Virus record (IMG/VR): IMGVR_UViG_3300046777_000918
Coordinates: 1-27,532 of that record
Length of the DNA: 27,532 bases
Strand: one strand, 5' to 3'
DNA from: a virus
Taxonomy: Duplodnaviria; Caudoviricetes
Shown: one piece after another, positions 15,628 through 20,207 of the stretch
Layout: the number at the start of each line of letters is the position of its first letter
Position numbering within the stretch: the stretch's first letter is position 1
Made by a program: the position numbers and the translations under genes
The notes under the pieces: model-generated
What the model was told of the DNA's origin: nothing
Seen by the model: only the letters and a program-made list of their open reading frames with translations
Database searches by the model: none

Positions 15628-15684
15628 GGGTGAGTAGATACCGGACTGCTACTACCGCACAACACAAATCTACAGAAATCTACG
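15628..15684 (-). promoter_or_regulatory. Early promoter/operator region with GTAGA boxes
   Basis: AGTAGA-N11-TCTACT inverted repeat (15633-15655) and tandem GTAGATTT repeats upstream of the RHH gene. Confidence 0.45.
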
Positions 15685-16270
15685 GCTTGAGCTGGTTGAG
15701 CCTGACCACCTCGACTGTCGTGTAGATCTCTGGAATGCCGAATCCACAGGCTTTCCCGAGCCCGTCTGCGGTACTCCGCTCGCACTGACGCTTCAGCCTG
15801 TACGGAGTCTTCTTGCGCGGTTCCACGATGGCATCCGCAACAAGATGTCCCTGCACCGTGGAAGCGAAGTAGCCGTTGAGACTGTTCCCAACCGCCTCTT
15901 CGGCCAGCGCGTCCCAGATCTGCAATCGGGTGAGATCTGTGTAGTGAAACACCGAGTACGCGCGGATAAGGTAGCGTCCCGGCAGCAGCGTGAACGTGTT
16001 GCCAGCAAGCAGCTCAATGATCTCAGAGTCATCCGATGCGACCACGGTGATCTCTCGTGGCAGCATACCTCCGTATGTCATGTCCGCGGTGTACTCGGTC
16101 ATGTCCGCCGTGAGTAGCGTAGTGTCTGCAGTCAGACTAGACGAGGAACTGCCACCAGCCGTGCCACTAGCCTTGCGATCCTGCAACACAGCCACGCGCA
16201 CGTTAAGCCCGTCCACATCGGACCGCAGCTTGTTTATGAGCGCGTTGGATGTCTTGGGATCGTAAGCCAT
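15680..16270 (-). CDS. Virion fibre-like protein with TAD repeats and C1q/TNF-like C-terminal domain
   Basis: N-terminal coiled coil, Ser/Gly linker, three TADxT repeats, TFTLLPGRYLIRA...EIYTTVEV beta domain. Confidence 0.55.
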   Translation of the reverse strand: MAYDPKTSNALINKLRSDVDGLNVRVAVLQDRKASGTAGGSSSSSLTADTTLLTADMTEYTADMTYGGMLPREITVVASDDSEIIELLAGNTFTLLPGRYLIRAYSVFHYTDLTRLQIWDALAEEAVGNSLNGYFASTVQGHLVADAIVEPRKKTPYRLKRQCERSTADGLGKACGFGIPEIYTTVEVVRLNQLKP

Positions 16271-16271
16271 G

Positions 16272-19200
16272 TTACTGGAGCTTCTTCTGGATCATACGCT
16301 GCGCGTCATCCACGGAGCCGACGACGCCAGCCAAAGAACCATCTGGGGAGTATACCCTGAACTTGCTCTTGGTATTGCCCGGAATGATGCGGTAGCCTGA
16401 CATGGAGTAGGTGCCCGGGATGGATGGGTCGGGAACCGGGGCTGGCATATAGCGGATGTCCGGGCTGGAAGACTGGAATCGCTGGCTGAGAGGGATGATG
16501 TTGCCGGAGTCGTCGAGGGTAATTGGGTCGGCAGATTTGATCTGATTAGATGAGAAAACCGCATAGGTTGTCGTTGTACGGCTCTTTCCTTTGACACCGC
16601 TTTGATAGTCATCTTGAACGTTTTTAATAACAATCCCGTCGTTTCCAGCCTTCAAAGCGTCATTGATTGCATCGGTTGTACGTCCTTTTGTTTGAGCTGT
16701 CCTCCAATGCTCTCCTTTCGCATCAATGACAAGCGGGTTGGATAACTTAACGAATGTCTGAATCACCATTGGTTCAGCATTCTGGAAGTCCCAAGCCCTA
16801 GATTCCTTAGCGTAAGTCGAGGCCGTTTTTTGGCTTTCAGCAAACCAATGCACTCCAACGTCCTTGCCCATCCCGAAACGTTCCTTCTGAGACTTAAATA
16901 CTGGGTTTTCCTTAAGGAATCGACCATCTGGAGTTCCATGATACACCGGCCCCACCGTATACCCCGCCGCCTTCGCCGCCTGATCCACTAGTTCCTGCGC
17001 CTTCGCCGTATCTCCAGCTTCTACCGCTGAGAGGTACTCGGCGTCGGAGGGCATGAAGCGAGCGCCTACATCCCCCGCTTGTCGAACCGGCCGGTTGGCT
17101 TGCCCGCCTTCTTGGCCGCCTTCCGTGCGGTCGAGAGCGCGATTGCGATTGCCTGCTTCTGCGGTTTGCCAGACTTCATCTCGCGTCGGATATTGGAGCT
17201 GATCGTTTTCTGGCTGTAGCCTTGTTTGAGTGGCATTTGCTTTCCTTTGTGCTTGTTCTGCGGAGTCGTAGATCCCGAGGAGCTTTCCTTCAGGACCATA
17301 CAACCTAAACTTGTTGCCACTGGTCAGGATTGTGAACCCTGCACCAGACTTCCACGCCTGCTCCTCGCCAACGGATCCCGCAGGCATGAAGCGATCCTTC
17401 ATCTTCTTGTAGGCGCTCTCGGAGAACTTGGCCCTAAAATCAGACGGATCCATCTGACCCATGCGATCCAGACGGAAGCTGTGAATGAACTCGGAGCCAC
17501 CTTTCTCAAGTGAGTTCATAAAGTTCCCAAAGAACTCAGCCTTGTCCGGACCGAACAGGTTGCGGCTTGGAATAGCGTTCTCCTTGCGGTCAAGGTTGGA
17601 CAGATAGGCGTTCAGTTCTCCAAGGAACTCGCCAACGTTGCCCCACAGGCCACCAACGGAGCCGTCAGGACGGATCGAGCGTTGTAACGACTTCCTCACC
17701 TGCGTCAGGTCGATGGCTCGGACGTAGGAATTGTTTTCCTTGGACAGCAGCAGGTTGTACGGCAGCACTTCTCGGAACGTCACTCGCCTCGATGCGTACT
17801 TGGTGCGCCAACGCTTAGAGGTCGGATCCTGAACCTTCTCGGTGGCCGGGTAATACTCAACAAACAGCGACCGTCCTTCGTTGATGCTGCGATTGGTCAT
17901 TTCCAGCCGCTGCTGCATCTGAGACGACACCGAAGAACCCTTGATGGCGTCCAACTGTTCCGGGCTGAGATCGCCGACCACCTCGCCATTGATGTCGATC
18001 TTTGCTCCGGGCAGTCCGTCGATGATCTGCTTGAGTGCCGTGACGTCCCGGGTCTCACGCTGCAACAGCTCACCATTGGTCAGCAGCCGCACCTCGCCAT
18101 TAGGCAGGCGCTCCGCAAAGCCACCGCGGACCGCGTAATCCGCAGCCACTGGGTCCAGAATGGCCTTCTGGTCGATCTTGAAGGACTTCTGGTAGTCCGC
18201 GTTCAGCAGAGCCTCGTCGATGTTCTCACGGGCCTTCAGCAGCCTTCGCAGTGCAGCGTCCAGTGCCGGGGAGGCGTTCTTGATCTCTGGGAACAGAACC
18301 GAGTCCGTAGGCGTAATGCCGAACGTCCGCTCGATGAGTTGACCGATCTTTGACCCAACACGGCTTGCCTCCTGCAGCAACAGCATGTCGGTGAAGTTCT
18401 GCCGCGTAGATCCGAAACCGCGCAGGAATGCGTCTGGCTTCTGAGACGACAGGATTCGTCCTACCTGCTCCGCTGCCAACTCCTCGCCAACATACACCGC
18501 ACGGTCCGATGCCGTCGGATTTGCCGATATGACGTTGGCGCGTGCGTCCTCCGGAAGCTGTTTGACGTAGTCGTTGAAGAGCTGCTCAACCTTGGCTGGT
18601 GAGTATTGCCCTTCGCTTACCAATCGCACCGTCCCATCCGGGTTGGGCACATAGGCTCCGGTCAGAGTCTCTACGAATCCAGTGACGTCGCCTTGGAACT
18701 GCTTGGTCTTGGCCAGTGCGTGCAGCAGTTCGTGCCCCAGCGTGTAGATAGGACTGTCACCCTTCACCTTGGGCATCGCGTCTACATTGATGAGGATGCG
18801 CGGAGTGGTCGCATTCTCGTCAGGGACAACGCCACGAGCAGTGACACCAGCACGCTTCTTGAACTCGTCACCGCGCAGGATCTCGACACCAATGTCTCCG
18901 CGAGTGCCTTTGATGAGGCTCTCCAGATCCATCAGGTTGGCCGCAGTGTCAGTTCCGAACCGCTCTTGGACCGACTGGTAGGCCGCCTTCTTCTCCGGTG
19001 CCAGCGTGTCAACGTAGGTGGTCAGGTCGTTGAGTCGTGCCGCCTTAGCCTCGCTACCAGTCAGTGTTTGCAGACCACGAGCGCCAAGAGAACCAAGAGC
19101 ACCAGCCACACCTCCGGATCCAATTCCGGAAGCAGCTCCTTCTTCTCCGCCAGATAGATAACCAAGAGCACCACCAAGAGCAGCGCCTTCCAGCGTTCCA

Positions 19201-20207
19201 GCAGTGCCTGCAAGTGCAGTACGTAGTGCAGCATCTCCGCCATAACGTCCAATGGTTCCGATGATCCGCTGCCGCATGTTGGCCTCCGGGATTGCACCAA
19301 CAGCCTCCAAGGCACCGATACGGGTCGGCGCACGGCCCATCTGGGCACCGGCAGTCTCCAGAGCGCGACCAACGTCGGTGGCGGCTTCTGCGATGAACGG
19401 AACCGCACCAACAGCGCCAATGGCAGGACCAACACCGGTAGCCGCTAGAACGCCAGACGTGGTTGCCGCTCCGCGCAGGGCCTCTGGAGAGATTCCTGTG
19501 GCTTCCGTGACAAACTTGCCAGCAGCAGAAGAAAGACGCTCTACGGGCTTTGAGATGGCTTGGACACCCTTCCCAGCAACCGCAGCAGCCTTGCCAACAG
19601 CCTTGGCGGCAACCTTCTCAGCTCCCAGAAGCTGTCCAACACCGGGGACGAACATGGTCGGATCTGCAACCATGGCCACACCCTGAACAAACTCAGGATT
19701 GAGATCCTCGGGCTTGAACATGATCGACATGTCGCCCTTAGCATACGCGTCGAGATCCTTGTTGAACTGGCGAGCCTCGAGGAACTGACCGTATCTGTTC
19801 TCTAGCGTACCTGTTCCGCTTATAAGGTTGTTAAGCTTGAACAGTGCGGAGTTCGGATCCTGAGACTGAGCGACAAGCCCGTATAGCTGGGTAGTTCCTT
19901 GAGCAAGGCCTTCAATGTAGTTCTTCGGATTGAACGCAGCTCCAGTAGTAACCGCAGCCTTGCCAGCAGCTCCAGCAGTCTGGACTACCGTATCCGCAGC
20001 GGTCAGAAGGCTTTGTAGCCAGTCAGTCTGCCGGGTTTTGTTGTAGTCCTCGAAAAGCTGATACTGCTCCTGAGTGGGCGTGAAGTTCGGATCCTGAAGA
20101 GCGTTTGCAATGTCCTGACCAGTCGTCGGAGTATCTAGCAGGCTTTCAACGCTCCCTGCCGATTGTGGTCCTAGCAACGAGTCGATGTCAGCCTGAGATA
20201 GTGTCAT
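16272..20207 (-). CDS. Large ejection/polyvalent protein with HExxH metallopeptidase and ART-PolyVal-like ADP-ribosyltransferase domains
   Basis: Gly/Ala-rich membrane-like segments; HELLH (18720-18734) with downstream EELAAE; DAEYLSAV...VYHGT...ASTYA...[10 protein letters not shown]...[11 protein letters not shown]. Confidence 0.8.
17066..17236 (-). CDS. Nested out-of-frame small basic phage protein, 56 aa ([16 protein letters not shown]...)
   Basis: Closely resembles the widespread phage family [29 protein letters not shown] as I recall it; A-rich leader with AAGGA. Confidence 0.7.

Follow-up and report, generated by a model that had tools for sequence, protein, structure and literature searches.

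A small phage gene nested out of frame within a polyvalent-type gene, at the junction between variable cores and exchangeable cassettes

The window analyzed here comprises 27,532 nucleotides and represents a 27.5-kb phage record with an estimated completeness of 74%. Its positions 16272–20207 (minus strand) are occupied by a gene for a 1311-aa phage polyvalent-type protein (the host gene), which consists of a core, a first module (module 1), a linker, an ART cassette and a terminal module. The core contains an HExxH motif (HELLH, residue 492; 18720–18734, minus strand), a possible zincin-like peptidase site; no peptidase family was matched in Pfam or PHROGs. Module 1 (17238–17393, minus strand) is composed of an RFMP motif and a domain of about 50 aa with four strands and one helix, and is a paralogue of the terminal module. 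The exchangeable cassette (16455–17060, minus strand) includes an RFMP motif (17049–17060) and an ART-PolyVal domain (16527–16946; PF18760, 52.9 bits, cut-off 31.2) and is replaced by other cassettes in relatives. The gene ends with an RYMP motif and the terminal module (16272–16454, minus strand), the second conserved flank of the cassette region, whose pattern was matched in 91 of 95 complete host frames.

The host protein shares with polyvalent proteins its ART-PolyVal domain, several variable domains (ART, PBECR5 and a methyltransferase in the 17 proteins scanned) and a terminase–portal context. Terminase_6N scored above its cut-off in the window, and the portal match was weak (SU10_portal, E 9e-5, under the cut-off). 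No real homologue of the host protein was found in cultured phages (one weak ART match), the Atlas held nothing for module 1, and the three genome-bin matches each carried another taxon label.

It should be mentioned that RFMP/RYMP-type motifs (17382–17393, 17049–17060 and 16443–16454 in the window) open most modules of the family; they may serve as microhomologies in recombination or as sites that the HExxH core cleaves. The module of about 55 aa that occurs internally (17238–17393) and at the C-terminus (16272–16454) has no Pfam, PHROG or Atlas match and is possibly a packaging signal. For the 196-aa gene 3′ of the host gene (15680–16270), too, neither Pfam nor PHROG yielded a match. Its N-terminus starts much longer tail-fibre-like proteins of 860–984 codons in relatives (L005, L010, L016), and parts of it are skipped by contigs of other runs.

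Between module 1 and the cassette lies a second, small gene, designated S (17066–17236, minus strand), which encodes a basic protein (pI 11.6) with a predicted helix hairpin, belonging to phrog_2423. The translation of this segment gives the 56 aa of the original prediction followed by TAG, and its frame is one base off from the open 1311-codon host frame, inside which S lies completely; the claim of a complete small gene nested out of frame thus holds. The S frame stays open 5′ of its start, up to an ATG at 17299 and a GTG at 17320. The predicted adjacency of the S end to the next RFMP motif is correct, the gap being 5 nt and not 4 nt. Since six ATG-initiated ORFs of at least 58 aa exist in this frame of the big gene, the S ORF included, the size of the ORF alone is uninformative. 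What goes beyond chance is the phrog_2423 match from residue 1 and the conservation in relatives. Residues 1–44 of S align with positions 1–44 of the 52 in the phrog_2423 profile (E 1.2e-19), so homologues of the small protein do exist; Pfam DUF6496 (PF20106) is related but below its cut-off (18.6 bits, gathering cut-off 24). Relatives of S were found in 146 phage records, and 75 of the best 80 viral-contig homologues are not nested, in agreement with the view of S as a normally free-standing phage family.

AlphaFold predicts a helix hairpin for S (pLDDT 83). No match to a solved structure was obtained by sequence, Foldseek or VIA-align (best Z 5.3, generic hairpins), the Atlas clusters for S are unnamed or carry DUF6496 only, and prediction of a complex of S with module 1 scored 0.02. 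In the host frame the S DNA (17067–17237, minus strand) is read as a 57-aa polar linker that is predicted to be disordered. In a fold model of the host segment (11-row alignment, mean pLDDT 61), pLDDT falls below 50 at model residues 59–114, the overlap corresponding to residues 55–111, and the linker lies between folded module 1 and the folded ART domain. The description of the host frame as a featureless linker is therefore apt: it is the newer frame and is predicted to be disordered.

The assembly of the long open frame was confirmed. Contigs of run X1 span the S start (2 differences) and the S stop into the ART cassette (0 differences) without any indel, and both differences are synonymous in S and amino-acid-changing in the host protein. 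Because X1 may be the source sample and X2 may represent the same data, these bridging contigs do not count as independent support; the same layout occurs in more than 100 other assemblies. We are highly confident that S is a real, conserved nested gene. The expectation that gene callers would miss it was borne out in part: the 56-aa sequence is absent from a collection of 15 billion while the 1311-aa protein is present in the Atlas, but four of six other nested variants looked up are present in that collection.

We determined how widely the nested state is conserved in this freshwater phage family. A DNA pattern for the S start revealed 64 viral loci; in each of them S lies within a host frame that is open, one of the loci being interrupted by a contig end. 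With module 1 alone as the query, a search blind to S, 67 of 69 viral loci were nested; of the other two, one was truncated and one contained the terminal module only. The same query gave 89 metagenome loci; of the best 80, 75 were nested, and the remaining five comprised two contig-end cuts and the loci L281, L282 and L259. In total, 107 haplotypes were obtained by pooling the S-start-pattern loci and the metagenome module-1 loci (L123, L302, loci with a flank shorter than 300 nt and duplicates were left out). All of them have the S ATG and a stop codon (TAA in 39, TGA in 36, TAG in 32), the length of S is 159 or 171 nt, and the host frame is open across S in 106. The equivalent host frame contains a stop in 69 of 75 free-standing homologues. 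The S-derived linker was present in 153 of 160 large host homologues, and nested copies occur on cores 23–100% identical to that of the window, which does not fit the proposed recent overprinting. The five near-complete nested genomes each have a single copy of S.

Several loci depart from this layout. In L281 and L282 a host TAA lies within S, S itself being intact, and is followed by an intact 594-codon cassette frame with the terminal module (L281:1406–3318; L282:6176–8088); here either the split is tolerated or the cassette is translated on its own. The short protein P0092, with its host stop inside S, has five members on 11 contigs. In L259 (6149–6339) most of the cassette is deleted by a frameshifting deletion, so that the host frame stops six codons past an intact S. 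A far more diverged nested S, about 64% identical to that of the window, was observed in L288 (2648–2818) with frame and place unchanged. One 44-kb viral contig carries two different nested copies (L096:481 and L131:7001) and is possibly a chimera or concatemer. Linker duplication was considered for three proteins and rejected, their second matches being non-significant.

The likely ribosome-binding region of S (17237–17250, minus strand) is A-rich and weakly folded, and contains AAAGGA (17248–17243), which includes a host arginine codon AGG and is located 6 nt 5′ of the ATG, as expected for the predicted SD-like leader. AGG occupies host codon −3 in 68 of 68 type-0 and type-2 haplotypes, compared with 9% of arginine codons in the core, and synonymous variation in these leaders drops over the last ten codons. 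Type-1 leaders (34 of the 107 haplotypes) are A-rich, lack AGGA and show no such drop. In the window, the anti-SD pairing is equalled or exceeded by 10 of 47 internal ATGs, the S ATG itself counted. The host residue over the S start is D, N or Y, and the ATG is kept regardless. Promoter and terminator scans gave chance levels. Two runs of the same study that are labelled metatranscriptomic yielded no match at this locus, which speaks neither for nor against expression.

Comparison of the two frames revealed opposite patterns of selection. For codons 11–40 of 55 distinct sequences, the S frame gave a pN/pS of 0.23 and the host frame one of 2.79; a set of 51 sequences obtained without use of the DNA pattern gave 0.25, corresponding to purifying selection on S, and 2.08, the underlying pairwise counts not being independent. 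Module 1, located immediately upstream and used as a control, showed the reverse, with a pN/pS of 0.16 in the host frame. Of 14 sites at which a third-position T would create a stop in the host frame, none had it, versus 9 of 24 safe sites (p 0.008; the stop of L281 lies outside the sites scored). From this substitution pattern and the predicted disorder of the host linker we conclude that in S it is the protein that is constrained, and in the host frame mainly the openness of the reading frame. Both frames are retained, as in internal overlapping genes, and they pair an ancestral with a de novo frame: the S family is widespread, and the linker is restricted to nested hosts and absent from six full-length outgroup proteins.

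The DNA on the two sides of S assorts independently. Five core types and 18 first-cassette types were distinguished among the haplotypes, and each of the 14 cassette types represented by two or more members is combined with at least two core types. DNA identity between core groups is 48–68% in core segments, 57–68% in module 1, 79–85% in S and 47–55% in the 180 nt after S. Similarly, the 30 nt 5′ of S differ by 0.56 between core types, compared with 0.06–0.24 in S (its first 29 nt being partly fixed by the search pattern), and the 12 nt downstream of the S stop track the cassette. Between the A and B core groups, whose core proteins are about 25% identical, S DNA similarity is 0.85, versus 0.85–0.86 within them. 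At 17060–17068 loose ends were found, with other sequences joined here within single samples. S haplotypes track cassette or core only weakly. Four-gamete incompatibility in S affects 48% of site pairs less than 20 nt apart and 65–74% of those beyond, a signal that may be homoplasy through repeated third-position change. Thus, conserved DNA lies between independently assorting modules, as in boundary sequences. Judging from these comparisons, S is likely a dual-coded recombination joint, and S and the terminal module would serve as homology anchors. S is not a required joint for cassette sharing, because S-less L305 and L095 have cassettes that share 82% identity over 1380 nt.

To get insight into the origin of the nesting, we examined an outgroup sample made up of the six database proteins, which share the core, together with L305 and G006. 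For P0103 and P0106–P0109 the absence of S is known from the protein alone (a viral contig for P0103 was not found). In four of the six linker-less proteins an internal module 1 runs on into further sequence. L305 has a 14-aa spacer after module 1 and no S within 10.7 kb. In G006, which is 99% complete, the locus is split between the record ends: at one end the core and module 1 are followed by a 13-aa spacer and the first part of an ART-type cassette, and the other end carries ART, the terminal module, a stop and then, 4 nt on, a free S. We infer that the locus is continuous across the record ends. The last codons of G006 module 1, D-Y-A, already include an ATG at the start site of type-1 nested copies.

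In a tree with long branches, the module 1 of nested genes clusters with internal modules irrespective of the presence of S and separately from the terminal ones (support 87/86, 59 columns). A single clade of S-bearing cores was rejected (p-AU 3e-5) in a test of 9 versus 5 rows with long branches, P0109 being left out, that was run after the tree had been seen; since these cores are not one clade, S has spread sideways or has been lost several times. Most likely, S moved into the host gene rather than the host extending through S, because G006 keeps core, module and ART cassette with S free after the stop. The most economical explanation would be that the downstream gene was captured at the module-1/RFMP junction; a whole ORF inserted there, being a multiple of three, would have kept the host frame.

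As to the probable role of S, head, portal, terminase, adaptor and lysis genes predominate among the named neighbours of free S homologues (72 scanned of 143 extracted), and the S domain forms the N-terminus of prohead proteases in Acinetobacter phages (Obolenskvirus) and in BcepB1A. PB1 gp20 is homologous to S (hhalign 98%), and ORF22 of the Pbunavirus SCUT-S1 is its counterpart (53% over 38 aa). ORF22 was identified in DNA-released particles by mass spectrometry, with 7 peptides and 77% coverage (PMC6521218, Table 1); this virion homologue is distant from S and less basic, the PB1 counterpart having a pI of 8.9 versus 11.6 for S. By analogy, the neighbours, the protease fusions and ORF22 make it fairly probable that S is a small protein bound inside the head, and its basic tail may contact DNA. 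The phrog_2423 proteins (PB1 gp20, SCUT-S1 ORF22, RSB1 ORF47 and the protease N-domains) resemble S in sequence from residue 1, and share with it a late or head gene context and the predicted hairpin. They are mostly free, unlike the window S, which is nested and more basic than its PB1 homologue. The available text of the Pa193 paper does not mention the number of the homologous gene. Fusions were also noted elsewhere: an N-terminal S-family domain in a 184-aa protein (L076:6001–6555) and, by fold search, an S-like domain on a Nudix-domain protein and a prohead protease.

Retention of both frames, substitutions driven by the S frame, and assortment of cores and cassettes around S are observed. 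With reasonable confidence, we propose that S is an old, selected, same-strand nested gene whose doubly constrained DNA forms a shared crossover joint. S would be made from its own start as a head or virion component acting inside the capsid, and ribosomes translating the host gene would pass through this DNA in a frame shifted by one base, giving a linker predicted to be floppy, both products presumably being translated. A once free-standing downstream gene would have been captured in frame at the module-1/RFMP junction, S DNA would have spread laterally to unrelated cores, and crossovers within S would join variable N-terminal cores with variable effector cassettes. More tentatively, and with somewhat less than even confidence, the captured virion gene may be a universal in-frame adapter: dual coding would freeze 160–170 nt that spread onto unrelated cores and opened a shared pool of effector cassettes through homologous recombination. 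It is rather unlikely that S, as a real nested gene, has an incidental position, with cassettes swapping at RFMP microhomologies and dual coding merely slowing S change. Such a position would agree with the cassette that S-less L305 has in common with nested phages, with breakpoints at or just past the S stop, near RFMP, and with the weak tracking of cassettes by S alleles, but S DNA differs between core groups A and B about as little as it does within them, and the scattered S-bearing cores require S transfer or several losses.

The original prediction was that the big gene formerly had its end at this point and grew through its neighbour to capture the ART module. On this view, module 1 was the end of a short polyvalent gene followed by S, and loss of the stop allowed read-through of S into a downstream cassette. 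In G006 (L037) S does lie directly behind the family stop, a cassette-less variant exists (L259), and a short gene could be obtained by deletion between module 1 and the terminal module, as these are paralogous. Nevertheless, this route is improbable: the module 1 of nested genes falls with the internal modules that S-less relatives carry (87/86), G006 and four of the database proteins lacking S continue from module 1 into more sequence or cassettes, S in G006 is free after the terminal stop, and the nested state is not recent. No relative whose large gene ends at module 1 with a free S was found among the 69 + 80 module-1 loci. Still less probable is that S is joined to the core by +1 ribosomal frameshifting, or that translation restarts at the RFMP methionine, to give short and long polyvalent forms. 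S-like domains are indeed fused to larger head proteins, the next host-frame ATG lies 5–11 nt past the S stop in 76 of 107 haplotypes, and L281 and L282 retain the 594-codon cassette frame behind the host stop; against this, the S ATG is invariant (107/107) and aligned with residue 1 of the free-standing family, S is N-terminal and not C-terminal in known fusions, and MP-type motifs are also present at junctions distant from S. A dead relic or an assembly artefact is hardly tenable: ORFs of this size do arise by chance in the S frame, but purifying selection, the invariant start and stop, and more than 100 separately assembled haplotypes plus the bridging contigs speak against it.

The usual example of nested overlap in tailed phages is Rz/Rz1 of lambda. 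Among overlaps described elsewhere, phiX174 E in D and the movement protein from apple stem grooving virus (ASGV) are, like S, same-strand internal overlaps with asymmetric evolution, and the ASGV protein, encoded over a polyprotein linker, also combines a conserved inner protein with a variable outer linker (Pavesi, 2021, PMC8227390). S differs from the overlaps treated in the available text of that work in belonging to a tailed dsDNA phage, in its likely origin by whole-gene capture and not by point-mutation overprinting, and in its location at a domain-swapping junction. The out-of-frame integration proposed for remodelled E. coli genes (Watson et al., 2021, PMC8788219) matches the likely origin of S; unlike the genes in the portion of that study available, in S the donor gene is intact, under purifying selection and inside the recipient. 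Boundary sequences of mosaic phages, as presented in the available part of PMC3233612, are conserved DNA at module borders and proposed targets of homologous recombination, like S. They lie between genes, whereas S is a dual-coded gene within another gene and would preserve the reading frame when modules are swapped.

The host protein resembles ART-PolyVal-containing polyvalent proteins (Iyer et al., 2017, PMC5512222) in its large multi-domain structure, terminase–portal phage context, HExxH motif and PBECR5. In the available text of that paper, cassette recombination is raised as a possibility for polyvalent proteins, and virion packaging and injection are predicted for them as a class; the same text contains neither "overlap" nor "linker", and its supplements could list such proteins. 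The window gene differs from this description in that its cassettes are bounded by RFMP-type motifs and that it contains a nested gene. In the open-access literature searched, neither this locus nor the S family was found to be described. The S locus is an internal nested overlap of a new form, nested overlaps themselves being already known.

Annotation usually discards fully nested genes, and the locus offers an unusually clear overlap history, with an old and widespread inner gene, a new outer frame and the un-nested layout kept in a relative. The more than 100 natural haplotypes provide a test bed for overlaps formed by gene capture, and the locus bears on the old question of conserved boundary sequences in phage mosaicism. 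S also points to a widespread, uncharacterised small virion protein, and marks the exchange junction of polyvalent effector domains that are predicted to attack the host. If the adapter reading is true, the inner gene would organise the evolution of its host gene.
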